A stretch of DNA of 64,000 nucleotides from Cetorhinus maximus (Eukaryota). The position numbers and the translations under genes were made by a program. Each line of letters starts with the position of its first letter. The stretch's first letter is position 1. Positions 11,829-57,515 of this stretch are shown in pieces. The DNA is taken from contig NC_135892.1 in NCBI RefSeq assembly GCF_964194155.1, positions 11,284,001-11,348,000 on the forward strand. Direction: 5' to 3'. Under the pieces are notes generated by a model that saw only the letters and a list, made by a program, of their open reading frames with translations, ran no database searches and was not told where the DNA came from.

Positions 11829-12128
11829 GTTTGGTGGTACAGAACTTGAGTACTGCTGAAAAAAAGAGACATGTCCAAGCTTTTTGTCTTCCACTCATCA
11901 GGACACATGCAGGAATACCAATATAAGGGGGAAAACAACAATTTATACTGTATGTGAAGGGAATGCTGATTGGTTGGCGAATGGCAAGTTCTGGAATGCC
12001 ACTTTCCAAACAATCGGCAGTCTCTTCACATACAGTATAAATTCTTGTTTTCCCCCTTATATTGGTATTCCTGCAAGTGTCCTGATGAGTGCAAGACGAA
12101 AAGCTTACACACGTCTCTTTTTTCAGCA
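11829..12128. mobile_element. Palindromic Penelope-type element, family 1
   Basis: Arms ~11854-11980 and ~12008-12128 are reverse complements; same family at 19149-21084 and 57190-57515; hammerhead cores in both arms. Confidence 0.75.
12077..12112 (+). ncRNA. Minimal type-I hammerhead ribozyme motif
   Basis: gtgtc-CTGATGA-gtgcaagac-GAAA-agct-TA-cacac; core intact, first stem-I pair mismatched. Confidence 0.6.
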
Positions 12129-12341
12129 ATTAACTCCTCTCTGAAATGGCCTAGCAAGCTACTTAGTTGTATTCAAGAAAGTGGCTCACCACCACTTTTT
12201 CAAGGGGCAATTAGCGAATTGCCAGCAATGCTCACATCCCGTGAATGAATAAATAATAAAAAAAATTGTCATCTGTGCAGGTGCCTAAGCTTGAATCGTA
12301 TGTCCCTGATGTTGGATAAAGGACTGCTGTCACCCCAGTGC

Positions 12342-12702
12342 ATCAGCTGTGGTTCCACGGATAGCACTCTCTCCTCTGAGTCAGAAGGCTGTGGTTTGAA
12401 GTCCCATTGTAGACTTAAGCACAAAAATCTATGTTGACACTCCAGTGCAATACTGAGGGAGTGCTGCATTGTTGGAAGTGCTGTTGTTTGGATGAGACAT
12501 TAAACTGACGCTCTCTCAGATAGATGCAACAGATCCTGTGGCACATTTTTGAAGAAGAGCTGGGGAGTTCTTCCCAGTGTTCAGGGTCAATATTTATCCC
12601 TCAATCAGCATTATTAAAAAACAGCTTAACTAGACATGACCACATTGCCATTTGTGGGAATTTGCATGCGCAACTTGGCGGCCCTGTTTCATACACTACA
12701 AC
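12342..12702 (+). mobile_element. DeuSINE (SacSINE1-like)
   Basis: TAGCACTCT..CCTCTGAGTCAGAAGG head; GAAGAAGAGC.GGGGAGTTC; AATATTTATCCCTCAATCA. Confidence 0.75.
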
Positions 12703-13387
12703 ATGCAGGAGCACAGAAACAGAGGAGGCCATTTAGCCCCTCAATCCTGTTCCACCATTCAATTAGATCATGGTGGATCGATGACCTAACTCCATATACC
12801 ATATATCTCTCTTCACATACTGTCTCACTCTTTAAATCCACTGTCATCACTCCACTCGTCAAAAAAAAGCCTTGACACAACCATCCTTATAGACCACCAC
12901 CCCATCTCCAATCTGTCCAAGTCCTTGAACATGTCATTAATACAAAAGCAGAATACTGCAGATGCTGGAAATCTGCAATAAAAACAGAAAATCAGGTGGA
13001 TGACCCTTCATCAGAACACAAATCAGATCTTTGTGACTGTGACAAAGTTAAACTTTCTTTTGCCCCTCCCTATTTCTGTAATCTCCTTCAACTCCACAGA
13101 CCTTCGAGATATCCGCACTTGTCTAATTCTAGCCTCTTGAGCATCCCCACTTTTAATTGCTCCACCGTTGGTCATTGTGCATTCAGCTGTATTGGCGCCA
13201 AGCCTATAGAGTTCCTTCTCTAAACTTCACAGTCTCTCCGCCTCTCTCATTGAGCAAGCTTTTGGCCAACTGCCCTAATATCACCTCATGCAGCTCAGTC
13301 AAATTTTATTTTATAATGTTGTGAAGCATCTTAGGACATTTATTACATTAAAGGTGCAATATAAATACAAGTTGTTTCTGTTGTTTT

Positions 13388-13891
13388 ACCCACCTTTGCC
13401 CATTTTCCTTAATGTCTTTGGTTAACAAAAAAATTATCGATCACAGATTTAAAATCAATTTGTATTTGCAGAAGACAGTTCAAAACTTCTACCACCCTTT
13501 GCATATAGAAGTGTTTCCTAACTTCACTCCTGAAAGGCCTGGCTTGAATTTTTAGACTATTCCCCCTAGTCATGGACATCCCAACCAGCAGAAATAGTTT
13601 CCCTCTATTTACCCTGGATAGAGCCTCAGTTTAATGTCTCTATTTACCCTATCAGTTCCCCTTAAAAACTTTGTTTAAATCACACCTTAGCCTTCTAAAT
13701 TTCAGGGAATACAACATTAGTCTGTGTAATCTCTCCTCATTATTTAACTCTTAGGAGTTTTAAGTTTCATTCGATAAATCTACACTGCACTCCCTCCAAG
13801 GTCAATATATCCTTTCTGAAGTGCGGTGCCCAGGAGTGTTCACAGTACACCAGGTGTGGTCTAACAAGGGTTTTGTATAGCTGAAGCATGG
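13388..13891 (-). mobile_element. CR1 LINE fragment
   Basis: Reverse complement of the CR1 RT 3' region (TACACTGCACTCCCTCCAAGGTCAATATATCC...GGTGCCCAG). Confidence 0.75.
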
Positions 13892-14591
13892 CTTCTTCTG
13901 TAGTCCAAGAACCTAGGCAATGGTGGATAGGTTCCTGGTAAGCAAGGGGGTGATAGGTTATCGGGGGTAGATGGGATGCAGATTTCAGGTTACTATCAGA
14001 TCAGCCATGATCTTGCTAAATGGCAGAGCAGACTTGAGGGGCTGAATGGACTACTTCTGCCCCTTGTTCGTATATCTAGAGGACTACAGTATAAACCATG
14101 CTTCAGCTACACAAAACGCTTGTTAGACCATACCTGGTGCACTGTATAGATAAAGACCAGCACTCCATTAGCCTTTTTGATTATTTTCTCTACCTGTTCA
14201 TGACATTTTGATGATCTGTGTACTTGAACCCTTAAGTCTCTCTGGGCCGCCACTATAGTAAAAACTGGGAATTGACTTGTATACATTAACATGAAACTCT
14301 AGTTTGGACCAGTACCAGTCATTTCCAAAGATTTACAGTTTTTTCCTTCTCATGTAGAAAGTATCCTGTCCTATCCTTTTCAGGTTCAAAGTGGATGTTT
14401 TGGAAATCCATTTGCCACAGTTTTGTCAATCCATTCAATCTATCAATATATCTTTATAATGTTGCTTTTCCATCTACTCTGCTTATAACACGACTTATCT
14501 TTGTGTTAGTGACACAAAGTCACTAGGATATACATCTTTCTATCACAATCCACAATCTATTTATTAATGGTTAATAAATAGGTCAAGTCCT

Positions 14592-16210
14592 GTCAGCTGT
14601 GGCTCAGTTGGTAGCATTCTTTCTCTGCACACCCCACCAGCTGTGGGTTCAGAGACCAGAGGACAAAAATATACACTGACATTCCTGTGCAGTAGCCGGG
14701 GGTGCTGTCAGGGGGTGCCATCTTCAGATGATTACAAAAATAGGTGGGAAGGCAAGTGGTGAGGATGACACAAGGAGTCTACAGAGGGATAAAGACAGAT
14801 TAAGTGAGTGGGCAAAAACTTGGCAGATGGAATATAATATGGGAAAATGTGAGGTTTTGCACTTTGGCAGGAGGAATAGATGAGTTGAATATTATTTAAA
14901 TGGAGAAAGACTGCAGAAGGCTCCAGCATAGAGGGATTTAGGAGTCCTTGTGCATGAATCCCAAAAAGCTAGCATACAAGTTCAACAGGTAATAGGGAAG
15001 GCAAATGAAATATTGGCCTTTATTTCAAAGGGGATGGAGTACAAAAATTGGGAAGCCTTGCTAAAACTACACAAGGCCTAATTAGACCACACATAGAATA
15101 CTGTGAACAATTTTGGTCCCCTTATCTAAGGAAAGATATACTGGCATTGGAGGCAGTTCAGAGAAGGTTCACTAGGTTGATCCGGGTATGGAGGGATTTT
15201 CTTATGAGGAGAGGTTGAGTGGGTTGGGCCTGTACTCGTTGGGGTTTAGAAGAATGAGAGACAACCTTATTGAAACATATAAGGTTTTTAGGGGGCTTGA
15301 CAGGGTAAATGCTGAGAGGTTGTTTCCCCTTGTAGGAGAGTCTAGGACCAGAGTGCATAATCCTCAGAGTAAGGAGGCGCCCATTTAAAACAGAGATGAG
15401 GAGGAATTTCTTCTCTCAGAGGGTAGTCAATCTGTGGAATTATTTACCGCAGAGGGCTGTAGAGGCTGGGTTGTTAAGTATTTTCAAGGCTGAGATAGAC
15501 AGATTTTTAATCAGTAAGGGAATCAAGGGTTATGGGGGCAAGGCAGGAAAGTGGAGTTGAGGATTATCAGCCATGATCTCATTGAATGGCAGAGCAGACT
15601 CGATGGGCCAAAAGGCCTACTTCTGCTCCTACGTCTTGAGAGGTTAAACTGAAAAAAAAACTAAAAGAACCCATGGCACTACTTTGAGGGAGAGCAGGGG
15701 AGTTATCCCTGGTGTCCAAATCAATACTTATCCCTTAATCAACGTCACTAGAAACAGTTTTCTCCTCCTTCAGGTATCATGCCCTAAAAGGCCATTGGCA
15801 ACCACTGGATTGATCTATGATTATGCTTGGCAAAGTGCTGCAGTGGTTTGCTGTTGCATTCTGCAGTATGGCTGATCAGGAAACTCTTCCACTCTTACTA
15901 CTTGTCATCAGGTGTATTGGAAGGACTTACAGCTGATAACCAACTTGCTTGGCCACACTGTGGACACACTTTCCACGGCCATCAAGTCCTGGAATGGGAC
16001 TTGAACGCAGTGCTTGGGACGCTACCCACTGCGCCACCAGACCTCCTAAAAACAGATTAGGTGGGACAATATCACATTGCTGTTTGCGGGAGCTGGCTGT
16101 GCGCGATTGGGCTGCAGAGTTTCCTACATTGTGCACTTCAAAAAGTGAACTTGATTGGCTTTGGGACGCCCTGGGGTGGTGATGAAGGCGCTGTACAAGC
16201 GCAGGTTTTC
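14592..16210 (+). mobile_element. DeuSINE split by a CR1 insertion and a second insert
   Basis: Head ~14592-14731, resumes GAGAGGTTAAACTG at ~15639, tail ~16055-16210. Confidence 0.6.
14732..15638 (+). mobile_element. CR1 LINE 3' part
   Basis: LQRD.DRLSEWAKTWQM and [19 protein letters not shown] fragments; tail GATCTCATTGAATGGCAGAGCAGACTCGATGGGCC. Confidence 0.92.
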
Positions 16211-16318
16211 TCCCTCTTTCTGTGTATATATATATATATATATATATGTGTGAGCACAGTTGCAGAGGTTCTTTTCTCTCTCTGTGTCTGTGTGTGGCTG
16301 CACAGGGCTGACACTCAC

Positions 16319-16480
16319 AATGATTTGGTAAGAGGCGCGGTTGTCGCTGGTCACCGGGTGGACGGTCAGACTGAGCACGTCGCTGCCCAGTATCATTTTG
16401 TAATTGAGGATGGTGGAGTTGAAGGGAGGCTCCAGTGTCCCGGGAGAGACCATCAGCTTCTTTAGGTTGCAGTCGTCCAT
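16319..16480 (-). CDS. Uncharacterised cadherin-like beta-sandwich/U-box-like protein, coding exon 1
   Basis: gcgATGG start, 54 codons MDDCNLKKLMVSPGTLEPPFNSTILNYKMILGSDVLSLTVHPVTSDNRASYQII, |GTGAGT donor, phase 0; L.V..G.L.P.F....NY pattern of cadherin-like beta-sandwich. Confidence 0.85.
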
Positions 16481-17260
16481 CGCCTTCCCTTTACCAGTCT
16501 CTCTCTCTGAGCGGTGACCCTCTTTTTGTTGTCCTGCCTCCTCTCACTCAGCCGCCCAACCTCAACATGTCGCCGCTCCCATGGCAACCGATGCCTTCCA
16601 CAAACACCGGGGCGAGGGCCCGGGATGATTCCCTCCTCCCCCAAACGCCTTTTATTCACAACCCACAGAATCAAGCGATCACCCCCCCCCCCCTCAATTT
16701 CAAAAGCATTGGAGGGCGGTGGGTTTATTGATTTTTTTTCCCCACTCTAACGGACGGCAGCCGCCTCCTCCTCCCGCCGGACTGGACTACAACTCCCGGC
16801 AACCCCTGCGCGCTATGCACATGCGCACTGCCGAGCCGCTATGCTAAAACCGCTCATATTCGATTTGTCCACCACTCGATGCAAACATGTCGGATTATCC
16901 TTCGTATGGAACCGTTATATTTATTTTGTAAGGCTCTGGTCCTAATTTGAAACCTTGCCATTTTCCTCACGTGCCAACATGACGGCAACGACCGAGCGCA
17001 TGCGCATTTAGTGGAGTTGCATCCACATTTCTAATATTCGATTATTTTATGACGCTGAACACATATATTTAATCCTACGAAGTGTTAGCATGCTAGGTTT
17101 AATCTTTTTTCCGTCTCTTCTAATTTGAGTATTTACCAACCGTGACCTGAAATGACTACAGGTCCCAGCATGCGCTGGGAGTGCTGCACATGCGCAGTCA
17201 GGGGGCTGACTCGGTAGTGACCCTGATTCCCTTCTCCTTCCGCCGGTTGCTGGGTGCAAA
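16481..17260. promoter_or_regulatory. CpG-rich bidirectional promoter and 5' UTRs
   Basis: Lies between divergent ATGs. ZNF143/THAP11-type ACTACAnnTCCC at 16786-16805 and 17155-17173; NRF1-type (T/G)GC(A/G)CATGCGCA at 16816-16827, 16996-17006, 17185-17196; YY1-type AAAATGGCG at 17258-17266; RFX X-box-like GCTCCCATGGCAAC at 16575-16588. Confidence 0.85.
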
Positions 17261-17401
17261 ATGGCGAGCCCCGAGCCTTTAAATGAAGAATATCCGACAG
17301 AAATCCACGAGTTCTTGGTGGGGTTCGAGGAGTCACTGAAGTCTGCCGATGGAACATTGAGGACCCTGATGTCGGTGCCCAGGAGTGAGTTGCTCCAGAA
17401 G
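17261..17401 (+). CDS. C1D: C1D (nuclear exosome cofactor, Rrp47 homolog), coding exon 1
   Basis: ATG to AAG|GTAACC donor, 47 codons [47 protein letters not shown]; resembles human C1D N-terminus (NEDYPVEIHEYL...MMSVSRNELLQK) from memory; phase 0. Confidence 0.96.
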
Positions 17402-17467
17402 GTAACCAACCCTTTGGTCCTCCACAATGGCCCAGCATTTACCGCCCTGACTAGCTTCTTGGACCTA

Positions 17468-17810
17468 GGGTTGCCAACTCTCCAGGATTGGCCTGGAGTC
17501 TCTAGGAATTGAAGATCAGTCTCCATGGACACTGCTAGCATCGGGACCTTAAAAAATATTGTTTTGATTTTGTAACATTCTTTGAACGTTTCCCTTTACC
17601 AGATGTAAAAACACTGAAAATGTGAGGAAAAGGCTTTTTGGCTGACAGTCAAGCATTATCCCATTGGATAATGAGTCTTTTTGCTTTCTAATTTGTGCAG
17701 GAAGGTAGTGTGTTACAAGGATGGATGTGTTGGCTGACTAGTGGCTGGAGTGTGGGGGCAAGTCATGTGGTGAAACCTCCAGGAATGCATTTAATCACAG
17801 TTGGCAACCC
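17468..17810. mobile_element. MITE with GGGTTGCCAACT TIRs in C1D intron 1
   Basis: TA|GGGTTGCCAACT...AGTTGGCAACCC|TA; about 340 bp; superfamily not assigned. Confidence 0.8.
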
Positions 17811-17814
17811 TAGT

Positions 17815-18340
17815 GAGACCTCAACTGGAGTATTGTGTATTTGGGAAATATGTGAAAGCATTTGGAGAGGGTACAGAAAAGATCCATGAGAATGGTTCCA
17901 GGAATGAGGCACTTCAGTTATGTGGATAGATTGGAGAGATTGGGGCTGCTCTCCTTGGAGAAAAGGTTGAGAGGAGGTTTGATGGAGGTGTTCAAAATCA
18001 TGTGGGGCCTGGACAGAGTAGATAGGGAGAAACTGTTCCCTCCCACTTGTGAAAGGATTGAGAATGAGAGGGCTCAGATTTAAAGTAACTGGCAAAAAAG
18101 AGCAATGGCGATGTGAGGAAAATCTTTTTTACGCAACAAGTGATTAGGATCTGGAATGTGCTGCCTGTGTGCATGATGGAGGCAGGTTCAATCATGACTT
18201 TCAAAAGGGCATTGACAGTCACCTGAAGAAGAAAAATTTGGAGAGCTACAGGGAAAAAGCACTAGGTGAATTACAGAGAGCTGGCACAGAGATGATGGGT
18301 TGAATGGCTGCATTCTGTGCTATGACCATTCTATGATTCT
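17815..18340 (+). mobile_element. CR1 LINE 3' part
   Basis: ERVQKRSMRMVPGMRHFSYVDRLERLGLLSLEKRLRGGL; ATTCTATGATTCT tail. Confidence 0.88.
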
Positions 18341-19167
18341 ACCTTATTTCAGAGGGCAGATGAGCCGTCCACATTGATGTGGGTCTGGAGTCACGTATTG
18401 GCCAGGTAAGGATGGCAGATTTCCTTCCCTAAAGCATACCAAAAATGTGATCTCCCTAGAGTGGGTACAGAGGAAATTTCTCAAGATGTTGTCAGGAATA
18501 GACAATTTTAGCTATGAGGGAAAAATTGTATAGGCTGAGGTTGTTTTCTTTGGAACAGAGCAGGCTGAGGGGGGATTTAACTGAGGTGTTAAAAAATGGA
18601 GGTGCCTAGAAGGAGTGGATTGGAAGGATCATCTTCCTTTGGCAGAGAGGTCAATAACCAGGTTTTAGCAGCATCAGTGAAATTATGTTAACATTAACTG
18701 TTTTTCTGTCTCCACAAATACTGCTGATCTGAGTGTTTCCAGCATTTAGTTTTTATTTCAGGTTTCCAGCGTCTGCAGAATTTTGCTTTTGCAATAACCA
18801 TGGGGCACAGATTTAAAGTCGTTGGTAGAAGGATTAGAGGGGAATTGAATAATTGTTTCACCCAGAGGGTGGTGAGGGTCTGGAACTCACTGACTGAAAG
18901 GGTGGTAGAGGTAAAAGCCCTCAGTGCATTTAAAAAAAAACCCACTGGATTTGCCCTTGAGGTGCTATAACCAACTGGGCCATGGGTCAAGATCTGGAAG
19001 GTGGGTTTAGACTGGATAGCTGAATGACCTTATATGCTGTAAATCTTTCTTTGTTTCTAGTAAACTGGATGGGTTTTTTTTTTTATAACAATCCAGTACT
19101 GCTTGGTTGCCATTACTGATGCTAGCTTTTCATTCCAGATTTTGTGTATTGCTGAAAAAAAGAGACT

Positions 19168-19201
19168 TGTCGAAGCTTTTCGACTTACACTCATCAGGCC
19201 A
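19168..19201 (-). ncRNA. Minimal type-I hammerhead ribozyme motif
   Basis: Reverse strand reads tggc-CTGATGA-gtgtaagtc-GAAA-agct-TC-gaca; core intact, one stem-I mismatch. Confidence 0.6.
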
Positions 19202-19250
19202 CTTGCAAGAATACCAATATAAGGGGAAGACAACAATTTATACTGTATGT

Positions 19251-20560
19251 TGTTATGATCCCAGCTGATGTTACTACAGGACAACCCAGATCCCAGGGTG
19301 GAACCCATCTTGATACATCCTAACTTTTATTTTTTGTTTAGATATGTGGAGCGTGGCTACTGAACAGAGTCACAGGAGTCAGCTGATGAACTTTTAACAA
19401 AGGAATAAAACATTCATTAAACCAGAGAAGATGAACTATGTTGCAATACTCCTTCACCCATAACTGTACCTTTACAGATATATACAGATTTGTAAGGATA
19501 ACACAAGTTACAAAAGCTATCTTATACTCTAATGTTCACAGTAAGAACACAGTCCCATGTAAACCAATAGGTGACCTGTGGCTAGGTACACCACACTTTG
19601 AAACCAAGTGACAGATGTTACCCCAAACAGATGCTCTCCATAGATGCTTGTGTCACTGAGCCAACCAGCCTCACTGAATTTCATCTTTCACGTGAGGGTT
19701 TCCAATCTCCACTCTTGAAGAACTTGCTCTGGAACCTTCTCCCAAACAACTCTTTCTCTCAGATGCTTTCCACAAGGATCACCTCCAAGGTTTTGAACTC
19801 TCCTTCGGATATTCCTTTCCCCGGATCACCATGTGCACTCAAGCTTCCTTCCGTGCACTTTCTTACACTGACTCAGCCATGCCAACAGAACACTGTTCAC
19901 ATGCCCCTAGTAAACAGTTACAGACCTTCTGCTGTCCCCTTGGATCTTCCGGCTTCTTTATTTAAATCTGCTTCCTGCTTTCTTCTCTTTAAGCTTGGAG
20001 CCTTCCTCTCTGCTCCTTACTTTCACTTCCACAGAACTGTACCTTTTCCAGATTCCTGTCCTTGTGCTTTGATTAGACTGTCCTCTTGGGACCTTTCCTG
20101 TTCCACTGCCCTGGATTTGGGGACTTTCTACTTCAGTTTCTGGAACTTGCTTCTGCAGTCCCTTCTGCTTGTCCAGCCTCTCTGGCAGCTGGCTTCAACT
20201 GGACTCAGACTGCTTTTCTTTTTGTGTGCGGGTGTGTTCGTTCCCTCTCTGGACCCCTGTTGCTCGACAACAGCACAGTTTTTTTTTAACCTTGTTTTAA
20301 CTTACCGAAACCACTACCCCTCTTGATAACACAGCTCTCCACTTCAAGGGTCATCAAGCCCATTAGAATTGCAGGTATAAAAACAGAGAGCGTTAGACCT
20401 GCTGTCTCCACTCAAAAAGGAAACTAGATCCCAGGTTTCACTGTTTAACCCACAAATAGAAAAAAACTATAAATTGAACTTAAACTTAAGGATATAACTT
20501 ATTCCTAACACGCCCTAACTAATACACATAACTAACTTAAACTGTCTCTATTTCCTAACA
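19251..20560. mobile_element. Solo LTR (1310 bp)
   Basis: Termini TGTTA...TAACA; 4-bp TSD ATGT at 19247-19250 and 20561-20564. Confidence 0.85.
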
Positions 20561-21006
20561 ATGTGAAGAGTGTGCTGATTGGTTGGCAAGTGGCGTTGCC
20601 ATGAAGAATGCACCACTGATGGTGACTGACAGTTAACTGCCAAGCATTGTTTGAAATTTATACCAGGCATCTTGATTCTGATTGGTCAAGGCATTGCCCT
20701 GAGGAATGAATCAGTGAATGGCTGCCACTTATTTTATTCAGCTGAAACAGGCGCAATGCGTGTACCTGTTCTTTGCTTGCTAAGAACAGATCCCTGTGTA
20801 TTATATATATGCGTGTATGTATATATGATACACATACATATATTAATGCAGCTGCCTGGGTTAAATTTCAAACAATGCTTGGCAGTTAACTGTCAGCCAC
20901 CATCAGTGGTGCGGTCTCCACAGCAACACCACTTGCCAACCAATCAGCACTCTCTTCACATACAGTATAAATTGTTGTTTTCCCGCTTATATTGGTACTC
21001 TTGCGA

Positions 21007-21042
21007 GTGTCCTGATGATTGCAAGATGAAATGCTTAGACAT
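21007..21042 (+). ncRNA. Minimal hammerhead motif (degenerate stems II and III)
   Basis: gtgtc-CTGATGA-ttgcaagat-GAAA-tgct-TA-gacat; stem I intact. Confidence 0.5.
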
Positions 21043-22604
21043 GTCTTTTTTTTTCAGCAATACTCAAGTTCTGTACTACCAAACGACTATCCCAGACGTC
21101 CTTAAATTCAATTCACTGAATTTAAGTCCCACAGCTGCCAGTGGAGGGATTTGATGTCACACCTTTGGAGCGTTAGTCCAGAAACACAACCCTATGTTCC
21201 CTTGGGTCTGCTGTCAGCAAGACCCCAATAACTGATGCAAAAGTGAAAAGTTTTACACTGATGCTGGGAAATCTGAAATAAAAAGACAGAATGCTAGAAA
21301 TCCTCAGCAGTTAAGGCAGCATTTCTGGAGAGAGAAACAGAGCTAACATTTTGGGTAAATGACCTTTTATCAGGACCTGTTCCTCTCCACACTTGCTGCC
21401 CAACCTGAGTGTGTTCTGGTCTTTTCCCTTTTTAATCACAGCATTTAGCATTCATTTCAATATCAAGAAGGTGGCTACCAGTGAGGAAGATGTATCGCTG
21501 CTAGCTCCTCCAATCAAAACCAATTCGTAGTTTATCTCTCCCCCACCACCACCACCACACCCCCCAAAACCCTGTTACATTGTGATTATTTTTTTAAAAA
21601 CAGAAGCAGAATACTGTGGATCCTAGAAATCTGAAATGTAAACATTAAGTACTGGAATTTCACAGATACTACCCGACCAGCAGTGTATTTCCTGCACTTC
21701 ATCACCTTTTCAAACCTATTGTCTGTTCCTCAAAGCTCACCCTTCTCATTCCAGCTCTACAGTCTAATCTTTTCCTTTCTTGAGCCCTTCAATGTGTTTC
21801 TGCCAATTAGTCCCACACTCACTTCTCCCACGGTTTCCTTTCCCTGTTTGATTCTGTCAGTCTGCCTTCATCTCATCCACACCATGGTCAATGTCACCAA
21901 TTCTGCTTATGATCATTGCCATGGTGAGTTATGCCTCCTTGAATCCTCTACGTTGCCTGTGATTTGATTGGCTATCTATGCCTTTCACAATCTTGGGACA
22001 TCTCCTAAGTGCTCCCCAGCCAATGAACTTTTTATTTTGAAGTGCAAACGATTACTTGGTGGGTGAATATGGCAGGGAATTTAGACACGGTAATATCCCG
22101 TAAACATTAATGAGATTACTGACTGTTCTGTGCTGGGTGTTAAATGAATGTAGGCAAGGGCACCCAGAAATATCTTTGGGTTCCTTTGACAGCACGCCAT
22201 AAAGCTGGCAGGAGTTTTAGTTAATGTCTCACCTGAAAAACAAATGGCACACGTACAATGCAGCACTCCCCCAGTGTTACACTTGACATTTTGGCTTGGG
22301 TTATTTACTCAAATGCTGGAATGGAGCTTGAACCCACAACCTGGATGTGGAGGTGAGCGTGTTGCCAAACTGATATTTAAGATTTGTCTTCAATTTTTCA
22401 TTAGCCTCCTAAGATCCATTTGATGCAAACTCCCAACTCACCTGTAACTTTGCCACACTACACAAGGATGATATTTTAAATTTGAGGCGTTGCTGGAGTG
22501 GGAGCCATTGCTGGCCGTGCCTTCAGCTGCTTGGGCCCTAAACTCTGGAATTCCCTCCCTATAGCTCTCTGCCTCTCTTTCCTCCTTTAAGATGCTCCTT
22601 AAAA

Positions 22605-45800: not shown

Positions 45801-47014
45801 GATGCATTACTCCAGTTGCTGTATTCCCAATGTTACAACGGTGACTATACTTTAAAAAGTACTTCATTCGCTGTAAAGTATTTTGGAACGCTCTGACTGT
45901 TAGCACAAGACCAATGACTTTGCGAGGCCTCTCTTCCGTCCGTTGACTGTAGCTTGCTGATTTAAGTGCAGGTAGCCCAATATAAATGGGCAAATAGAGC
46001 CTTTGATCACAGAGTTGTCCATCGCTGGAGGACTGCAGTCAATCATTGGCTCTCACTCCTCTCACAAGTGGCACAGACACAACTGCAACGCAAAGCCATC
46101 TCCGTGCTGGTCTGATTCTATGAGGCGCTCGTTTTAAGATATTGTGAAGATATAATTCGGAAAACAAAAAGCTTTGGACAGTGTACTACCCTTTCAAACA
46201 AAGCTTTCAAAAGGTGCTCAGGAAAGAACCATCCGGTGGAATCTCTGGTAGAATAATTCAGGTGCCGGCAGCTGGGTACTGATGAGAATCTGCTTTCAAA
46301 CAAATCAGTTCATTAACCTCCTTTTTGTTCAAAGAAACCAAACTCAGGCGCACATTAATTCAACTGCTGTCCAGAACAAAATGTATAATTTTGTACCTTG
46401 CAGAACTAGTTGATAGAAACCATATTGGTAATGTTGATAATAGCAACAACGGATATATTGTTACGATTTCTCCTTTTTCTATATTTCCCAGGAAGATAGG
46501 AACATGCATCAGGCCATTCAGGAGAAAATTTAAGAAACACTTCTTCATGGGAAAGAGTGGTAGAAGTGTGGAACACGTTCCCACACTGTAGTGTTCAATG
46601 GTTTGATTGATCAGTGTTTGATTACTTGAGTCTGATAACTAATTTACATTCACTGTGCTTGATCGGTTAAGCCTGGCTGTGGACTCAGAGCAAAATAAAC
46701 AGACACCACAGAAGCTACTAGAAGCTGAGCTGCAAGCATGACTGCTGACATTTTGTGATTGCAGAGATATTTTAAAACTCTTGTAAATAATCCTGTTGCA
46801 CACTTAGAAACTAGTGTCATCTCTGCATTGCTCTGAGATGTATAAAATATACAACAGGTGCTAGCTTTAACATATGAGATCGGTAGATTTTTGCTAGCCA
46901 AGGACATTCAGGGGTATGAAGCCAAGGCGGGTGGATGGAGTTAGGATGCAGATCAGCCATGATCTCCTAGAATGGTGGGCGGAACAAGCTCAAGGGGCTG
47001 AATGGCCTACCACA

Positions 47015-47515
47015 AACAGAACATGCAGAAAATCCTCAGCAGGCCTGACAGGATCTGCAGGGGAGAGAAACAGGGTTAACGCCTCAGGTTGATGAACTTT
47101 GGTCAGAACTGGGGAAAGATTGAAAATTAACGGGTTTTAAGCAAGTCAAGAGGCAGGGGTATGGTACAGGCAGGGAAGGAAGAACAAAGCACAAGGTCTG
47201 TGATGGCAGGAGATAGCAAATGACAAAAAGGATAGCAAGGCAAAAGGACATGGCAATAGACAATTAAAGAAACAAAAGATGGGTCTTGGGGAGGTATAAA
47301 TGGCAACAGCAGAATCATTAACAGCACTAGCTGCGTGAGAAATCGGGAGCAGTGGCTGTGATCGGAAACTGTTGAACCCAGTGTTGAAGCTGGAAGGTTG
47401 TAGTGTGTCTAATCAATGGATGGGGGCGCTGTTCCCCGAGCTTCACTTGAGCTTCGTTGGAACAATGTTGGAGGCCGAGGACAGAGAGGTCAGAGTGGGC
47501 GTTGGATGGAGAATT
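47015..47515 (-). mobile_element. Penelope-like element: ORF C-terminus plus terminal repeat
   Basis: Minus strand 47514-47362 reads NSPSNAHSDLSVLGLQHCSNEAQVKLGEQ, then frameshift, LDTLQPSSFNTGFNSFR, resembling the Penelope GIY-YIG endonuclease C-terminus (recalled pattern E...I..L.TL.P.GLN); family-2 tail follows. Confidence 0.7.
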
Positions 47516-47571
47516 GCAACCCTATGAACTTGTAATAAATGTCGGTTAAATCATTTTGGATATTATACAGA

Positions 47572-47962
47572 GGGAGGTGGTGGCATAGTGGTATTGTCAG
47601 TGTACGAGTAACCCAGAGGCCCAGGCTAATGCTCTGGGGACATGGGTTCAAATCCCTCCACGGCAGTTGGTGGAATTTAAAGTCAATTAATAAATTTGGA
47701 ACATAAAGCTAGTCTCAGTGATGGAGACAGTGAAACTATCATCAATTGTTATAAAAAACTCACCTGGTTCACTAAGGGGAAGGAAATCTGCCATCCTTAC
47801 CTGGTCTGGCCTACATGTGACTCCAGACCCACAACCATGTCGTTGACTCTTAACTGCCCTCTGAAATGGCCTGGCAAGTCATTCAGTTCAAGAGCAATTA
47901 GGGATGGGCAACAAATGCTGGCCTTGCCAGCAAAGCCCACACTCCACCCAAGAAAAAATAAA
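47572..47962 (+). mobile_element. tRNA-derived SINE with a LINE-type tail
   Basis: GGTGGCATAGTGG / GGGTTCAAATCCC boxes; tail GCAATTAGGGATGGGCAACAAATGCTGGCC shared with the 27630/50525 family. Confidence 0.75.
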
Positions 47963-48306
47963 AATAACATAATACACATTCTGACATATCTGTGTATTAT
48001 AATATGCACATGACTCACCTGATGTTGTGGTCGAAGATAAAGAACTTCAGAAACGTTGAGCTTTTAAACATAAACAGTAACTGGATGTTGAGAAAGTTGT
48101 CTGTAAAACTGATGTCTAACTGAGGCAAGCTGACAGGTTGGTATCCGTCAGTTACTTTACAACTGGATTTTTGCTCAAGTTTGAGAAGTAAGTAGAATCG
48201 ATAGTTGATAGAATTGAACCGAGTGTCAGCTAGAACGGGCTTAAAGAACAGCAGAAATGTTAAATCCTTTATTTTATTTCTTATTATTTTTTATCCAAAG
48301 GTCAGG

Positions 48307-48745
48307 TGTCAACCAAGGTTCAGTTGGTAGCACTCTCACCTCTAAGTCAGAACATTGCAGGTTACTCGAGGACTTGAGCTGACACCCCAGTGCGGTACTG
48401 ATGGTGTGCTGCACTGTTGGAGGTGCCGTATTTTAGATGAGATGTTAAACGGAGACCTTGTCTTTCCTCTCAGGTGTACATAAAAGATCCCATGGTACTA
48501 TTTTGAAGAGGGGAAGGAGGGGGTTCTCCCCAGTGTCCTGGCCAATATTTATCCCTCAATCAACATCACAAAAACAGATTATCTGCTCATTATCATATTG
48601 CTGTGTGTGGGATCTTGCTGTGTGCAAATTGGCTGCTGCGTTTCCTACATTACAACAGTGACTACACTTCAAAGATGTACCTCATTGGCAGTAAAGTGCT
48701 TTGAGACTCCTGGTGGTTTTGAAAGGTGTTAAATTCAAGTTTTTC
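48307..48745 (+). mobile_element. Near full-length DeuSINE (SacSINE1-like)
   Basis: CAGTTGGTAGCACTCTCACCTC head, Deu-like core and CTCATTGGC..TAAAG tail. Confidence 0.8.
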
Positions 48746-49676
48746 TTTCCTTACATGCAGAATGATTAAATTCTGATCAGAAGGTAATAGCCTTCTCTTT
48801 AAAAAGGATATAGANNNNNNNNNNNNNNNNNNNNNNNNNNNNNNNNNNNNNNNNNNNNNNNNNNNNNNNNNNNNNNNNNNNNNNNNNNNNNNNNNNNNNN
48901 NNNNNNNNNNNNNNNNNNNNNNNNNNNNNNNNNNNNNNNNNNNNNNNNNNNNNNNNNNNNNNNNNNNNNNNNNNNNNNNNNNNNNNNNNNNNNNNNNNNN
49001 NNNNNNNNNNNNNNNNNNNNNNNNNNNNNNNNNNNNNNNNNNNNNNNNNNNNNNNNNNNNNNNNNNNNNNNNNNNNNNNNNNNNNNNNNNNNNNNNNNNN
49101 NNNNNNNNNNNNNNNNNNNNNNNNNNNNNNNNNNNNNNNNNNNNNNNNNNNNNNNNNNNNNNNNNNNNNNNNNNNNNNNNNNNNNNNNNNNNNNNNNNNN
49201 NNNNNNNNNNNNNNNNNNNNNNNNNNNNNNNNNNNNNNNNNNNNNNNNNNNNNNNNNNNNNNNNNNNNNNNNNNNNNNNNNNNNNNNNNNNNNNNNNNNN
49301 NNNNNNNNNNNNNNNNNNNNNNNNNNNNNNNNNNNNNNNNNNNNNNNNNNNNNNNNNNNNNNNNNNNNNNNNNNNNNNNNNNNNNNNNNNNNNNNNNNNN
49401 NNNNNNNNNNNNNNNNNNNNNNNNNNNNNNNNNNNNNNNNNNNNNNNNNNNNNNNNNNNNNNNNNNNNNNNNNNNNNNNNNNNNNNNNNNNNNNNNNNNN
49501 NNNNNNNNNNNNNNNNNNNNNNNNNNNNNNNNNNNNNNNNNNNNNNNNNNNNNNNNNNNNNNNNNNNNNNNNNNNNNNNNNNNNNNNNNNNNNNNNNNNN
49601 NNNNNNNNNNNNNNNNNNNNNNNNNNNNNNNNNNNNNNNNNNNNNNNNNNNNNNNNNNNNNNNNNNNNNNNNNNNN

Positions 49677-49766
49677 ACACACACGTATGCACACATACGC
49701 ACACATGCATACACACATATATGCACACATACACACACACACATACATGCGCACACATATACACAT
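49677..49766. repeat. (CA)n/(CATA)n-type microsatellite between N gaps (48815-49676 and 49767-49902)
   Basis: Directly visible. Confidence 0.9.
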
Positions 49767-51272
49767 NNNNNNNNNNNNNNNNNNNNNNNNNNNNNNNNNN
49801 NNNNNNNNNNNNNNNNNNNNNNNNNNNNNNNNNNNNNNNNNNNNNNNNNNNNNNNNNNNNNNNNNNNNNNNNNNNNNNNNNNNNNNNNNNNNNNNNNNNN
49901 NNAGCCGTGTTGCGATGGACACGGGTGGGCTGCTGCTCCTATAATGAAGGAAAAGAAAGATGGGGGAAGGAGCAGGTTTCAGTCCCGGCTGTTTTTATGC
50001 GCTTTTTTTGGGGCCCATTTCCAATGCTGCATTGGTGGAAACCTGGGAGAGAGTAACCTGATCTCGCAGCCACAGTCTGTACACAAACATGGGGAGGCCA
50101 TTATTAAAAAAAGGAGAAACAGGTTGAAATTCCTTCAACAATAAAGATTACCTACATAAGTACATGATCTAAACATGGCATTGCCTCTCCATCCAGCTGG
50201 CAGCAATTAAAGGCATTTATTCTTATCATCATCTGCACTTCTTTTTTAATATAAATGATCTTCAGGAGAAGCAACGGTATTGAACACTTACATTCCTATG
50301 GGTCTTGGCAGCCATGCACCTAATACTGAACACATGGAGCTGAATTCTGATTTATTACCTAAGGAAATCTTCTGCCTTGATTTGGAGTGATGACGTGAAG
50401 GATAATGCATGATGGAAGGTGTCTCATACAACTCTTTCCTGGGGCCATTTTTTACTGCACAGAAACAGGCCATTCAGCCCATCTGTCTCGTCCGCTCTTT
50501 TTGTGCTCCACACAGGAAATATATCGGCCGTTCCTTCACTTGTCACTGGTTCAAAGCCCTCGAGCTCCCTCCCTAACAGCACGGTGGGTGTGCCTACACC
50601 ACATGGACTGCGGCGGCTCAAGAAGGCAGCTCACCACCACCTTAAAAAGGGCAATTAGGGATGGGCGATGCATGCTGGCCCAGCCAGCGACGCCCACATC
50701 CTGCGAAATAATAAAACACAGGCCCCCTCCTCCCTCCTTAATACAAAAAGCAAAATACTGCAAATGACGGAAAGCCAAAGCGAAAGCAGAAGATGCCAAA
50801 AATACTCAGCAGGCCGGGCAGTTTCCCTGGAGAGAGGGTTAACGTTTCAGGTCAGTGACCTCTTACCTGACAATCGAGATCCTGGCTGAACTCTGTCCTG
50901 ATCCCAGTGACCTGCTTTGGCTCCCAATCCTTTAATGCCCTTCAATCCCCTGTGGTGCCCTTTGGATACAGAAAGCTTCCAATGAATGGTGCCCACCCCG
51001 TGGTCATGTTCCACGGTCATCAGAGTATCAAGCGGGCTCCGAATTCTCACACACCCTCTCTGCCAATGTTGCACCAGGATTGGCATCAACTCCCCATGTC
51101 ATTACAATTTGAAAGCTGTGATAACAATTGCCATTTGATTATTGGCTTGGCCAAAACAAATTTGCCTATGACTGTGATATGGACAGAAGGGTGACAATTT
51201 CTGGTGCAGTCAAGGTACATTCGCACAAAGAGAAAAGGTAGGGGAGGCAAAGCTAGAGTTCCCTGGATGACG

Positions 51273-51305
<33 letters not shown>

Positions 51306-52904
51306 TGAAGCAGAAAAAGGAGGCATATGACAAATATCAGGTTGATAATACAAGTGAGAACCAGGCAGAGTGTGGAAAGCCCAGAGGGGAGATTGAAAAG
51401 GGACCAAAATGGTCTGCTCCTTTTCAAATTCCTGATGTCTGCAAAGGTGAGGGAGTTAGTGAAACAGTTACTTACCAAACCACTAGATGGCAGCAAAGGA
51501 TAGTTAATGATCTCCCTCAGGCTCTGGGGAGCGATCCCCAGGCAGTTGGTAACAGAATCATAAAAAGCTATTTTTGTGCCGTGTTTATTGTTTTGCTACG
51601 AATAGGGAACAAAAAAAATCATCTCCCTTTTGCAGCCGAAACGAACACTCATCATCGCCTTTATGGACTATAATCTACAACAACAGCAGCTTGCATTTAT
51701 ATAGCGCCTTTAAAATAGCAGAAGGTCCCAAGGTGCCTCACGGGAAAGTTGTCAGACTAAATTTGACACCGAGCCACAGGAGGAGATATTAAGGCAGCTC
51801 GATCAAAGTGGTGCATTTTTAAGAAGCATCTTAAAGAGGAAAGCGAAATAGAGAAGTGGAGAGGTTAGGGCCCAGGCTGCCAACAGCAGGGGGGGGATTA
51901 GAATTGGGGGATGCACAAGAGGCTAGACTTGGAGAAGCGTGGAGATCTCGGCGGCCTGAGGGGCTGGAGGAGATTACAGGGGTAGGGAGGCGAAAGCGAA
52001 AGGAGTCTGTGTGAAAATGCAACTCTGATCATAGCAACACCAGCTATTGACTCCTTACATTGGGAGTATTCGCACATCCTGCCAAGTGGTTAAAGATTGA
52101 GTTTAATGCAGGTTATTTTATTTTATTTTTTTGGCAAAGCGATTGCATAGTTTGGTAGTTTCGAGCAGCTTGTCACAAAATGATAGGAGCACTGACCTCC
52201 AGGAACCTAGCAGTTTACCTTCCCATGGTTGCTGCAAAGTAGAACAAACCGGCTTTGTCGACAGGTGCTGGGACCTAAAGACCCCAGTGAAACGCTTCCC
52301 CACGAGATAGGCATCTGCCCCCAGAGCCAGACGGATCACCCAGTCCTTCCCCACCCCCCCCGTCCCCCCAGCTTCACCGGAACCCCAGAGCTCGACAATC
52401 AGCTACTGCTATCTGAAAATACAGCGGAGTCCAAACACACACATTTATTTTTATATCTAAAAACAACATCCAGCGCGTTGCTTCACATGTGTTCAAGTTC
52501 TTGTGACATTAATTAGTAACAGCAAAAAAATAAAGGCGGAGTCTCGCAAAATCAACTCAAGCTGTGGAAGCAAAATTGATCTTAAAAAGAAATCAGCTGA
52601 GGGATTAAATTACTGGGAAAAAAATTGGTTTTAAGATATTTTATGAGGTTGGGAAAGGGGCCTTATCAGCGCTTATTTATTCTGTGTTTGATTTGTAGAG
52701 GATGAATGGGTCTGAGGGCCAGTCAAATAAGTCTTGTTACATCCTCTTTTGTTGCCCTTAAACCAATGTATTTGTGATCAAAAATGGTTAATCCTGAAAG
52801 AAAGTTTGTTAAGCAAATATGCTGAGTGGGTGTGCTGCAATCCAATCAAAGCCAGTTTAATCCCTCACTGACTGAGTCTCTCCCTCTTGCTTCACAGTGT
52901 ATAT

Positions 52905-54375
52905 ACACACTGACACAGACACACACACTGACACAGACACAGGCACTNNNNNNNNNNNNNNNNNNNNNNNNNNNNNNNNNNNNNNNNNNNNNNNNNNNNN
53001 NNNNNNNNNNNNNNNNNNNNNNNNNNNNNNNNNNNNNNNNNNNNNNNNNNNNNNNNNNNNNNNNNNNNNNNNNNNNNNNNNNNNNNNNNNNNNNNNNNNN
53101 NNNNNNNNNNNNNNNNNNNNNNNCACAGACCCAGACACACAGACACACACTCTGACANNNNNNNNNNNNNNNNNNNNNNNNNNNNNNNNNNNNNNNNNNN
53201 NNNNNNNNNNNNNNNNNNNNNNNNNNNNNNNNNNNNNNNNNNNNNNNNNNNNNNNNNNNNNNNNNNNNNNNNNNNNNNNNNNNNNNNNNNNNNNNNNNNN
53301 NNNNNNNNNNNNNNNNNNNNNNNNNNNNNNNNNNNNNNNNNNNNNNNNNNNNNNNNNNNNNNNNNNNNNNNNNNNNNNNNNNNNNNNNNNNNNNNNNNNN
53401 NNNNNNNNNNNNNNNNNNNNNNNNNNNNNNNNNNNNNNNNNNNNNNNNNNNNNNNNNNNNNNNNNNNNNNNNNNNNNNNNNNNNNNNNNNNNNNNNNNNN
53501 NNNNNNNNNNNNNNNNNNNNNNNNNNNNNNNNNNNNNNNNNNNNNNNNNNNNNNNNNNNNNNNNNNNNNCACACACACTGACACAGGCACAGACACACAG
53601 ACACAGACACACACACACACACTGACACACACACTGACACAGACACAGGCACAGACACAGATACTGACACAGACACCGACACACACACTGACACAGACAC
53701 ACACACAGACACAGACACACACACTGACACAGACACACACACTGACACACACACAGACACAGGCACACACACTGACAGACACACACACTGACACAGGCAC
53801 AGACACACAGACACACACACACACACACTGACACACACACTGACACAGACACAGATACNNNNNNNNNNNNNNNNNNNNNNNNNNNNNNNNNNNNNNNNNN
53901 NNNNNNNNNNNNNNNNNNNNNNNNNNNNNNNNNNNNNNNNNNNNNNNNNNNNNNNNNNNNNNNNNNNNNNNNNNNNNNNNNNNNNNNNNNNNNNNNNNNN
54001 NNNNNNNNNNNNNNNNNNNNANNNNNNNNNNNNNNNNNNNNNNNNNNNNNNNNNNNNNNNNNNNNNNNNNNNNNNNNNNNNNNNNNNNNNNNNNNNNNNN
54101 NNNNNNNNNNNNNNNNNNNNNNNNNNNNNNNNNNNNNNNNNNNNNNNNNNNNNNNNNNNNNNNNNNNNNNNNNNNNNNNNNNNNNNNNNNNNNNNNNNNN
54201 NNNNNNNNNNNNNNNNNNNNNNNNNNNNNNNNNNNNNNNNNNNNNNNNACACATTTACACAGACAGACGGACACACAAACACTCACACACACACATCATG
54301 CACACAAACTCGCACACACCATAAGCACACACACACACAGTCACAGACACATACACTCTTACACACACACATACA
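52905..54375. repeat. Compound CA/CAGA/CTGA simple-repeat array with N gaps
   Basis: ACACACTGACACAGAC-type units; Ns at 52948-53123, 53158-53569 and 53859-54248. Confidence 0.92.
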
Positions 54376-56119
54376 GATAATGGAGGAATTTGATAAACAT
54401 TGAGTGTAATTTATTAGCTGTTACTTTGTCCTAAAAAGGGTCACGAGGCTTTTTGATTTCTTCCTGAGCCTGAGCTTCTTACCCACAGATCAAACAGCTT
54501 CCGCTGCTTAGCCTGCTTTTCGGGAGGGTAAGAGGGAGGGAAAGATTGAGGAAATAGTTCTCCAAATAGAATCGATCCTGTTGCCCGTTTTTTTTGAAAA
54601 CATTGTACCCAGCAACCCAGCAATCAGGGAGAAGCGGAGAGGTTTAGGGAGGGAATTCCAGAGCTTAGGGCCCAGGCAGCTGAAAACGCGACCCCCAATG
54701 GTGGAGCGATTAAAATCGGGGATGCGCAGGAGGCCAGAATTGGAGGAGCGCAGGGATCTCAGAGCGCTGTGGGGCTGGTAGAGATTACAGAGGCAGGGAG
54801 GGGAGAGACCACGGAGAGATTTGGAAATGAGGTTAAGAATTTTAACATTGGGGCATTGTCTGTTTAGGAGCCAGTGTTAGGTCAGAGAGTGCGATGGGGG
54901 GGAGGGGGGGAGTTGGGTGGAGGGGGTAGGGGGTGGGACTCCGTGTGAGCTAGGATAGAGTTTATGATGAGTTCAAATTTATGGAGGGTGAGTCTGGTCA
55001 GGAGACGGCAACAACTCACATTGCAACTCAACACTGACAAGGCAATTTCACTTAAAGAGGTTTCATGGAGAGCTGACTGATGTGAGAGGCAGAATCAGTC
55101 ATTCTAATGGCGGGGTGGGGGGTGCGGGAGGGCAGAGGTCAGAGAATGTTACAGCACAGAAGGTGGCCATTCAGCCCATCATGCCTGTGCTGCCCCTTTG
55201 GTAGAGTCATCCAACTCGCCCCATTCCCCCACAGCCTGGTGTGGTTGACGGAGTTTATCCTCGTTTATATATCCTCCCACGTCACCGGACTCCAATGCGC
55301 TTTTCAGGACTGCGTCAAACGCAAAAAGGTGTTCAAATGCCTCGTCGCTGCCTTCCCGCAGGGAGAGGAAACCATTTGAGAGGAAGCTGGAAATCAAACG
55401 CGCACCGGATCGGGGGGAGCGAGATGTCTGAAGTAGGAGGTCAAGGGTGCAAATCGTCCAGAGCACGAGGAAACTGATATTTGGAACGTTTCCTGCTTTA
55501 TGGGCTGTCACGGAGAGGAACAATCTAGAAAACAGCTCGGCAAAAGTTTTGTAGAAACCTGTTGCTAGGCGGCTGCATTGACGCCTGTTCACGGTAGAGC
55601 TGGTTACTCATGTGCATGAGCATCCTCGCTTTTGTGCACTATTCCCGTGTTAACAAAGCTAAAGATTCCACATGCCTTTCGGACCATCTTCTCGGACACC
55701 CCTTCAAGGATTTGTGTGTGTGTGTGTGTGTGTGTTGCCGGATAAGGTGATGCACGGGGGGTGCATTTTATCAGTTTGCACCCCCCTGCCCTATGGAATG
55801 CAAATCAGGGTCTCGGGGAATTCCATGGTGACCAGAGGTCACACAAGGATTTCCTTCCATTAACGTTAATCCACGAACATTCCTCTGGGGAGAATTTGGA
55901 AAATCTACACTTTGTAAGTTAAAACATTGCAAGGATAGAGTTGAAGGTGGTGGAGGGGGGTGGGGGGGGTTTGCATTCCTGATTTTTAGCTCCTGGACTG
56001 CCATACCCATGCCTATTTTCCGCTGAATAAGAAAGATATCATCCCATTGAGGAGCGCGGGATAACCTTGTGGAGAATTTTATTTATAATCATTGGTTTCT
56101 GCTGGTTATTCAGGGTTTA

Positions 56120-56780
56120 AAGAATCACAGAGTGAGACAACACAGAAAGAGGCCATTTGGCCCATCCTGCCCATGCTAGCTCTTTTGAAAGACCTATCCA
56201 ATTAGTCCTACTCATCTGCTCTTTCCTATTAGCCCGGAAATCGTTTCCCCTTCAAATATTTATCCAATTCCCTTTTGCAAGTTATGAGTGAATCAGCTTC
56301 CATCGCTCTTCCAGACAGCACGTTCCAGGTTATGTAATAGATTGTCTCTTTTCCCTCATTTGCCTCTGACTCATCTGCCATCGACCTTCAACCTGTGCCC
56401 TCCAGTTACCCACTCGTCTTATTTACCCTGTCAAAAATCTTCATGATTTTCAACACCTCCATTAAACCTCCTCTTAACCTTCTCGGCTGTGAGGAGACCA
56501 GCCCCAGCTCTTGCAGTCTCTCTACGTAACTGAAGTCCCTCGGCCCCGGCATCATTCTGACAAACGTCCTCGTCGCCTTCTGCCCTGTCTTAATATTCTT
56601 CTTAAAGTGTAGACCCCGGAACTGAACACAATATTCAAGCCGGGGCCACATCAGTGTTTTATTAAAGGTTTAGCATGAGTTTCCTTGCTTTTGTGCACTA
56701 TTCCTGCATTAACAAAGCGAAAGATTCTACCTGCCTTTTGAACAATCTTCTCGGACACCTTCAAGGATTTGTGTGTGTGT
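56120..56780 (-). mobile_element. CR1 3' part
   Basis: WPRLEYCVQF...FSYVERLQELGL...RRLRGGL. Confidence 0.85.
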
Positions 56781-57189
56781 GCAACAGCACATGTCTCCTA
56801 GTCCTTGATCTGTTTTCTTTACCCTGCAACCCTTGGGTTGAGTGTGCCTATACGGACATACAATGGGGAAGGGGCAGTTTGAGAATGAGGCCTTTTGCAG
56901 GTGAAATAGCAGACTCCTCACCTGTGTACATTCTAGTTGGGCTGGTTTCAATTAAAATGATTTGGAATTTAACGTTCAGGCTCCTGGGGGAGGCCGGGGA
57001 GGGCGTGCGGGGGCTGAGGTTGCCAACCCTCCAGGGTTGCTCTGGAGTCTCCAGAAATTGTGACTGAATTTCCAGGACAAACTGCTGGGAGTGGCCAGGG
57101 GGGGGGTGGGGAGGGGTGTTGGGTGGGGGGGTGAAGAAGAAATCAAAGGGACATTAAAAAAAGTAGTGGAATGTTTTGGAACTATTTTT

Positions 57190-57515
57190 GTTTGGTAGTA
57201 CAGAACTTGAATATTGCTGAAAACAGAGACATTCTGTCAAAGCTTTTCATCTTGCACTCATCAGGATAGCTGGCAAGAAATTACCAACAGCAACAGGGGA
57301 ACAACAATTTATACTGCATAAGAAGAATTTGAATTTGAAGGTTTGAATTTGAAGAAAGCTGGGCAGTTAACTGTTCAATGTTGCATTCTCCATGGCAATG
57401 CCTCCACCAATCAATCTGCGCTCTCTCCTCATGCAGTATAAATTGTTGTTTCCCCCGTTACAATTGGTAATTTCTTGCGAGCTAACCCGATGAGTCCAAG
57501 ATGAAAAGCTTTAAC
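57190..57515. mobile_element. Family-1 palindromic element nested in a MITE
   Basis: Begins GTTTGGTAGTACAGAACTTG like the copy at 11829; inverted arms with TCATCAG and CCGATGA cores. Confidence 0.75.
57235..57268 (-). ncRNA. Minimal hammerhead motif
   Basis: Reverse strand reads tatc-CTGATGA-gtgcaagat-GAAA-agct-TT-gaca. Confidence 0.55.

Follow-up and report, generated by a model that had tools for sequence, protein, structure and literature searches.

Three inverted arm pairs and a nested insertion

The stretch of Cetorhinus maximus DNA analysed here (the window, 64,000 nucleotides, with positions counted from its first letter) is repeat-rich animal DNA with N gaps, and it contains three fold-back loci of one repeat family, probably a Penelope-like element (PLE), in which every arm carries a type-I hammerhead ribozyme motif. 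A motif scan placed six type-I cores, two per locus, where a first-pass annotation of the same DNA had reported them, with C3 of CUGAUGA at 11901(−), 12082(+), 19197(−), 21012(+), 57264(−), and 57487(+). All six arms can be aligned across a TATA box, the hammerhead motif, and a pyrimidine tract. The exact pattern CTGATGA-N6-14-GAAAAGCT matched 3 of the 6 arms versus 0 matches in 100 shuffles, and the 28-nt motif of the locus 1 right arm (L1R) matched 5 of 6 when up to 3 mismatches were allowed. The features of the loci are listed below, where hammerheads are named by locus and arm, pLTR stands for pseudo-long terminal repeat (LTR), and reference positions are those of the locus 2 right arm.

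11812..11823, plus strand: left target-site duplication (TSD) of locus 1, 12 bp, 11/12 identical to 12129-12140
11824..11986, minus strand: long arm of locus 1, a pLTR-like end with a tail at 11824-11853; its outer end maps to reference position 21089, the family 3′ end
11872..11905, minus strand: hammerhead L1L, G12 changed to A and N17 = G, predicted dead
11997..12128, plus strand: short arm of locus 1, ending about 29-31 nt before the family end
12077..12112, plus strand: hammerhead L1R, intact core, first stem-I pair broken
12129..12140, plus strand: right TSD of locus 1, directly following the short arm
19141..19250, minus strand: short arm of locus 2, outer part; outer end uncertain (19136-19148)
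19168..19201, minus strand: hammerhead L2L, both stems with mismatches, core and UUC intact
19251..20560, no strand assigned: secondary insertion with TG..CA ends and TSD ATGT
20561..20806, minus strand: left arm of locus 2, inner part, the most upstream element sequence in the window
20807..20844, no strand assigned: TA-rich spacer at the inversion junction, from the sequence
20845..21089, plus strand: long arm of locus 2, with CCAAT at ~20940, TATAAA at 20966, the hammerhead, and a tail (21060-21089) reaching the family 3′ end
20999..21005, plus strand: 7-mer in the 5′ flank, complementary to 21020-21026 (loop II and stem II 3′ strand)
21007..21042, plus strand: hammerhead L2R, G10.1 changed to U, palindrome broken
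57189..57326, minus strand: long arm of locus 3 with tail, from an older subfamily, by alignment
57235..57268, minus strand: hammerhead L3L, intact core, N17 = U, stem I 4/5
57340..57512, plus strand: short arm of locus 3, by alignment, which stops at 57511
57483..57516, plus strand: hammerhead L3R, U4 changed to C, stem I lost

The pairs are head-to-head at all three loci, with the element 3′ ends pointing outward, and each consists of a copy joined to an inverted, 5′-truncated copy at a joint unlike that of the other two. The inner junctions fall at reference positions 20929, 20953/20858, and ~20806/20845. The arms had been described as symmetric, and they are not: one arm per locus is longer, by 29-31 nt at locus 1, about 24-29 nt at locus 2, and up to 53 nt at locus 3. 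At loci 1 and 2 this difference is a tail on one end only, of the 30-40-bp kind, whose last 14 nt are 79% A+C. The locus 1 left arm reaches the family 3′ end and the locus 2 left arm stops about 24-29 nt short of it, while alignment of the locus 3 right arm ends at 57511, adjacent to where cleavage is predicted (N17 = 57512).

Locus 1 folds as a single hairpin (−189.5 kcal/mol, z −24; the right arm folded alone reaches −17.6 kcal/mol), and its arms are 89% complementary; because they differ by 11%, the locus is not an assembly palindrome. The 12-bp TSD that encloses both arms is identical at 11 of 12 positions, a level of at least 11 that only 4 of 5000 random junction pairs reach. By blastn the match of the right arm ends at 12128-12130, which leaves it about 30 nt short of the family end, and we prefer this short end because the TSD starts exactly there. 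At loci 1 and 3 the best match of each arm is its own partner (94% and 90%, respectively), and the paired arms have private letters in common, which is consistent with their having been made from one template.

Locus 2 had been drawn as a fold-back with a 1.8-kb loop. The fold-back in fact measures ~640 bp, and its left arm subsequently received an insertion of 1310 bp (19251-20560), which has TG..CA ends, a 7/8-nt terminal inverted match, and a 4-bp TSD, ATGT (19247-19250 / 20561-20564). This insertion would be solo-LTR-like; it has no internal long repeat and no second copy in the window, and the open reading frames (ORFs) scanned within it have no Pfam match. The inner left arm extends about 130 nt farther upstream than the other arms. 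[quoted passage not shown] Runs of three coded organisms in public data have words in common with locus 1. In these data (four runs aligned to locus 2 at 80% likeness, with counts from X1, a set of contigs, and X20, a capture library), reads join 20680(−) to 20850(+) in 399 X20 reads (201+198; 182 starts) and 21 X1 contigs, and the inner left arm is thus the upstream part of the same family. An X1 contig also covers the right junction of locus 2 (21065-21250) with 0 differences.

The hammerhead motif and its flank

Each motif has the type-I layout and lies in the terminal repeat in 6/6 arms. Stem I forms up to 5 pairs and is followed by CUGAUGA, a stem II of 2 bp closed by a 5-nt loop, GAAA, AAGCUU, and N17. 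The palindromic AAGCUU that the first-pass annotation had placed in the position of stem III is intact in 5 of the 6 arms, with a predicted self-duplex of −4.3 kcal/mol. Measured against the Cervera and de la Pena consensus of PLE minimal hammerhead ribozymes (min-HHRs), the CUGANGA, GAAA, and UH boxes and the palindromic 15.2-16.2 region are present; an unpaired base between 9 and 10.1 and a helix II of at least 3 pairs are absent from these hammerheads, in which G10.1 directly follows A9. The proposed consensus, tgtc-CTGATGA-gtgcaagac-GAAA-agct-TC-gaca, has C at N17, which does not hold: the six arms read G, A, C, A, T, T, with C in one. With N17 excluded, the 1-3 deviations claimed for each copy hold for five arms relative to the column majority, and fail for L3R, which has 7.

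None of the six arms retains a fully intact ribozyme. L1L no longer has G12 and carries G17, stem mismatches occur in L1R and L2L, L3L has U17, L2R has lost G10.1 and the palindrome, and L3R has lost U4 and stem I. The hammerhead is the lowest-energy fold in 0/6 isolated arms, and 0/12 pairs have changed on both sides, so that the covariation proposed as a check did not appear, in a set of 6 decayed arms that has little power for it. An Rfam search at E ≤ 5 returned 14 matches, none to a hammerhead family, and the ribozyme call therefore rests on motif and layout. The microRNA matches in that search were rejected as generic hairpins below the gathering score. Judged from their letters, the ribozymes of these six arms are probably inactive, as had been suspected for most copies. 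The expectation that a read-through transcript carries one ribozyme and its antisense is supported by the layout: RNA of either strand would contain the antisense arm first and then one ribozyme, and cleavage at these loci seems unlikely.

An ATG lies within CUGAUGA in 6/6 arms, and the frame that it opens stays open over the 27 codons followed in L1L and L2L; in the remaining four arms it is broken. A candidate intron surrounds the hammerhead. At 20994-21058(+) and the equivalent site in four other arms, a GT donor-like site and a pyrimidine-CAG acceptor flank the motif, 62-68 nt apart, with the GT at −17 to −20 from C3 in 5/6 arms; a pyrimidine-CAG also follows the hammerhead of a second fold-back family in the window, described below. 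No read joint for this 62-68-nt candidate is among the 15 of 168 joints listed. An intron of 75 bp is documented in the pLTR of the D. virilis Penelope (PMC2377424).

The 5′ flank holds a further feature that is found in all six arms. A 7-mer lying 6-7 nt upstream of C3 could form 5-7 of 7 pairs with a stretch made up of loop II and the stem II 3′ strand. Random 15-mers of the window contain a 5-nt complement at a rate of 1.2% and a 6-nt complement at 0.4%; the complementarity was found post hoc, and the six arms amount to one observation. On sequence grounds it could be a pseudoknot supporting the 2-bp stem II, a competing hairpin, or chance. A stem II of two pairs is common among hammerheads, and ~40% may use a pseudoknot of at least 4 pairs between stem I and stem II (PMC3088659). 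The pseudoknot hammerheads of that study likewise have a 2-bp stem II, and the relevant part of that paper does not describe it jointly with a PLE dimer palindrome; in the present loci the pairing is a prediction that covariation does not back.

These features could together define a distinct PLE hammerhead, although we regard this as doubtful. Its 2-bp stem II would be held by a 5-bp flank-loop pseudoknot (or the ribozyme turned off via a 7-bp hairpin) and combined with the dimer palindrome, and some short arms, such as that of L3R, would end at the cleavage site because cleaved RNA had been reverse-transcribed. If so, thousands of genomic ends would be a record of PLE ribozyme cleavage in vivo, which went undetected in the RNA sequencing (RNA-seq) presented in the part of PMC11167929 that bears on it. 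A literature search, which did not extend to Repbase or Dfam and does not establish absence from print, returned no account of this family or of its flank-loop pairing.

Family copies in public reads and the search for a parent element

At the likeness threshold given above, 24,916 X1 contigs and 7,881 X20 reads aligned to locus 2. The X20 depth is about 700-3100 on the arm versus 1-2 on the flank, which suggests hundreds to thousands of family copies, bearing in mind that X20 is a capture library and that contig depth is not a copy number. Runs X15 and X17, which are presumed to be RNA, give no indication of transcription either way. The family has a sharp 3′ end at 21089/21090, followed by mixed AT-rich loose ends (557 and 1099 X1 contigs; agreement 0.38-0.39). 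Behind 21089, 498 X20 loose ends share one continuation (agreement 0.72), and a hand reading found its 10 codons, taken in frame with the hammerhead ATG, to be free of stops. This hints at a parent ORF that continues beyond the tail; alternatively it could be one captured locus, 10 open codons being common by chance.

At the hammerhead, where family letters were taken from 40 of 96 variant rows, the majority keeps an intact core. Loss of core nucleotides from a wider consensus had been named in advance as evidence against the ribozyme, and the reads argue the other way. Where L2R deviates the family has the expected letter (G in 716/829 reads, A in 844/887), and G12 is A in 204/889 reads, as CpG decay would lead one to expect. 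Depth over the hammerhead is ~1/3 of that over the TATA region, and loose ends at 21049 and at 20979-20984 have a consensus (agreement 0.56-0.57) that lacks the AAGCUU palindrome. These observations point to a large divergent subfamily that shares the TATA region and the tail, and whose reads are clipped across the hammerhead.

The short frame ending at 20661 looked like a possible C-terminus of a GIY-YIG endonuclease from a PLE, a likeness that the tests failed to confirm. Among longer proteins the frame has no homologue at E ≤ 10, and among those of similar length the one homologue is P0001, for which the Atlas had no usable match. A candidate endonuclease motif did not turn up in the papers searched. 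Phmmer matched P0001 and P0002, and the latter was rejected as a repeat protein whose score was summed over 6 stretches. Peptide-based searches for further loci gave 267 and 94 pattern matches with 0 confirmed, and scans of metagenome collections and of viral and prokaryote genomes for exact DNA patterns gave 0 matches. By eye, the frames at 20661-20810(−) are loosely similar to the Nematis rows of PMC8557442 (Fig. S2) in their last block.

Truncated Penelope-like insertions, their rivals, and known systems

We interpret the three loci as dead-on-arrival, truncated 3′-end (pLTR) insertions of one high-copy PLE family, with a probability of roughly 0.85. The assignment to PLEs rests on architecture: the head-to-head layout, the unequal arms, the TSD, the varying junctions, and the 3′ end defined by reads match the published signature of PLE insertions, and on this basis we favour it. 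The link to PLEs that the first-pass annotation had drawn is supported by the same features, while its idea of a stand-alone non-coding, retrozyme-like family is not supported: the loci are head-to-head and variably 5′-truncated and have a one-sided tail and a long TSD. This layout recurs in a second family of the window, at 3924-4171, which counts in favour of a PLE origin. Its fold-back (3912-4184) has arms at 3924-4023 and 4036-4135 (94%) and a CUGAAGA-type core at 4035; the right arm is longer, to about 4166-4171, with a tail of about 31 nt or more, a 13-bp duplication (3912-3924 / 4172-4184, 11/13) encloses the unit, and many solo copies lie elsewhere in the window.

Such insertions could arise as follows. 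The reverse transcriptase (RT) and GIY-YIG endonuclease of an autonomous partner would make staggered nicks, about 12 bp apart, in AT-rich DNA, and reverse transcription would be primed at two internal RNA sites ~30 nt apart, about 45 and 75 nt past the hammerhead ATG. Synthesis would stop early, and the two short copies would join head-to-head at variable points, the product being an inverted pair with a one-sided tail and a TSD. The hammerhead would be carried along by the pLTR as a passenger. To act in the parent RNA, the ribozyme would need a second copy, with which it would dimerise via AAGCUU, and probably protein help; at these loci it is mutated, lacks a partner in cis, and would lie downstream of its own antisense arm in read-through RNA.

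Several results weigh against this interpretation. A TSD around the whole unit is clear at only 1 of the 3 loci: at locus 2 it is only suggested (6/8), and at locus 3 none was seen. A gappy local alignment extended the locus 1 right arm to 12163, that is, to the family end, and the locus 2 arms (87% alike) are no closer to each other than to those of other loci. The autonomous RT/GIY-YIG partner that had been proposed as a check did not emerge from the window ORFs scanned: no PLE RT was found, GIY-YIG matched 0/168 long and 0/150 short ORFs, and the sole RVT_1 match (3-365(+), E 3e-7) is a fragment that we take, from its motif, to be of CR1 type. The frame upstream in locus 2 had no Pfam match at the cut-off, and its one true relative, P0001, is a 63-aa fragment of another family copy. 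No direct (tandem) pLTR is present in the window. Finally, read depth drops to zero past 20780, which may mark the fixed 5′ end of a non-autonomous family.

This last point bears on the strongest rival, in which the family would be a self-propagating non-autonomous PLE derivative, with an RNA of at most ~400 nt, or the fold-back itself, being transcribed and moved in trans by PLE protein. The end of read depth at ~20780, the failure of the searches to find a coding partner, the CCAAT and TATA boxes within the arm, and a report of retrozymes as pLTR derivatives that includes one chondrichthyan genome (bioRxiv 2026.07.22.740005) would all suit it. However, the depth drop adjoins an indel as well as a TA repeat that is masked in the reference, 0/3 loci are head-to-tail tandems, and junctions differ from locus to locus, so that the fold-back was not copied as a unit. 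The 498 X20 loose ends with a shared continuation hint at a longer parent, although a single captured locus could also produce them. We consider this derivative unlikely.

Two further explanations fare much worse. A DNA-transposon miniature inverted-repeat transposable element (MITE) or fold-back element, with an incidental hammerhead-like string, would account for long inverted repeats and a TSD, and a MITE with TSDs had been named beforehand as a possible refutation; but the termini are unequal by ~30 nt, inner junction and length vary, matching terminal inverted repeats (TIRs) and uniform length are not found, the TSD is 12 bp, and the family majority retains an exact hammerhead core and palindrome, which makes this origin very improbable. 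Two independent solo insertions side by side, or a later local inversion-duplication, might be expected where high copy number makes adjacency likely, and the locus 2 arms, being no closer mutually than to other loci, would fit; yet at locus 1 both arms are enclosed by a single TSD, the partner arms at loci 1 and 3 have private letters in common, and the orientation is the same at 3/3 loci, and we give this scenario hardly any credence.

Other features of the window lie outside the family. Two minus-strand exons, 8394-8831 and 10338-10652, encode a cadherin-like beta-sandwich (PF12733, above the cut-off); the second begins mid-domain, and locus 1 may lie within an intron. Of 238 short minus-strand ORFs, 150, extending to 34.2 kb, were searched for further host exons, with 0 matches. 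Inverted related stretches (80%) lie at 625-1001 and 62059-62435, a 23-nt G-rich minisatellite at 57957-58735 (28 registers listed), and a 20-nt tandem repeat at 60265-60364.

Under the PLE interpretation, this is one more high-copy PLE family with a known insertion signature, and otherwise ordinary. In their pertinent parts, PMC3846280, PMC8557442, and PMC11167929 leave open what the PLE hammerhead does and how head-to-head inversions arise. Thousands of short, TSD-bounded fold-backs would permit 3′ ends to be counted by class (tail site, family end, cleavage site) and junction microhomologies to be tallied.

The closest parallel is with endonuclease-bearing (EN+) PLEs. PMC3846280 describes inverted pLTRs, for the most part head-to-head, that have a tail of 31 bp and TSDs of 8-10 bp, and an inverted 5′-truncated copy with a 30-40-bp tail is described for all EN+ clades in PMC8557442. 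Insertion units of this kind share with our loci the inverted head-to-head copy, variable 5′ truncation, a one-sided tail of ~30 nt, and a TSD near 10 bp, as well as AT-rich flanks, a TATA box and hammerhead in the repeat, and an ATG within the hammerhead. In PMC11167929 the tail corresponds to the segment that separates two internal start sites of the RT within an AC-rich region, the ORF begins in the hammerhead, and the ribozyme is protein-assisted and dispensable for insertion in vitro. Unlike EN+ PLE units, these three loci have no ORF body or direct pLTR, and their TSD is 12 bp versus 8-10 bp in the rotifer examples; the clade may be Poseidon, Neptune, or Nematis.

The ribozymes themselves resemble the min-HHRs of PLEs, which occur as dual motifs on opposite strands 100-700 bp apart, with thousands of copies in coelacanth and Xenopus (PMC4209133). 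Shared features are the CUGANGA and GAAA boxes, a short helix I, a palindrome in place of helix III (AGCU is given for D. willistoni in PMC4209133), and opposite-strand pairs; dimer hammerheads of Lunse et al. are treated in the review PMC6765202. The present motifs differ in their 2-bp helix II, in having no unpaired base at 9/10.1, and in a loop II complementary to the 5′ flank. Animal non-LTR retrozymes are likewise short, carry a type-I hammerhead, and are akin to PLE pLTRs, being reported as pLTR derivatives in bioRxiv 10.64898/2026.07.22.740005, which includes one chondrichthyan genome. They are, in contrast, head-to-tail tandem repeats that yield circular RNA (PMC7229834; bioRxiv 2026.07.22.740005), whereas the loci described here are inverted pairs with one ribozyme per strand.

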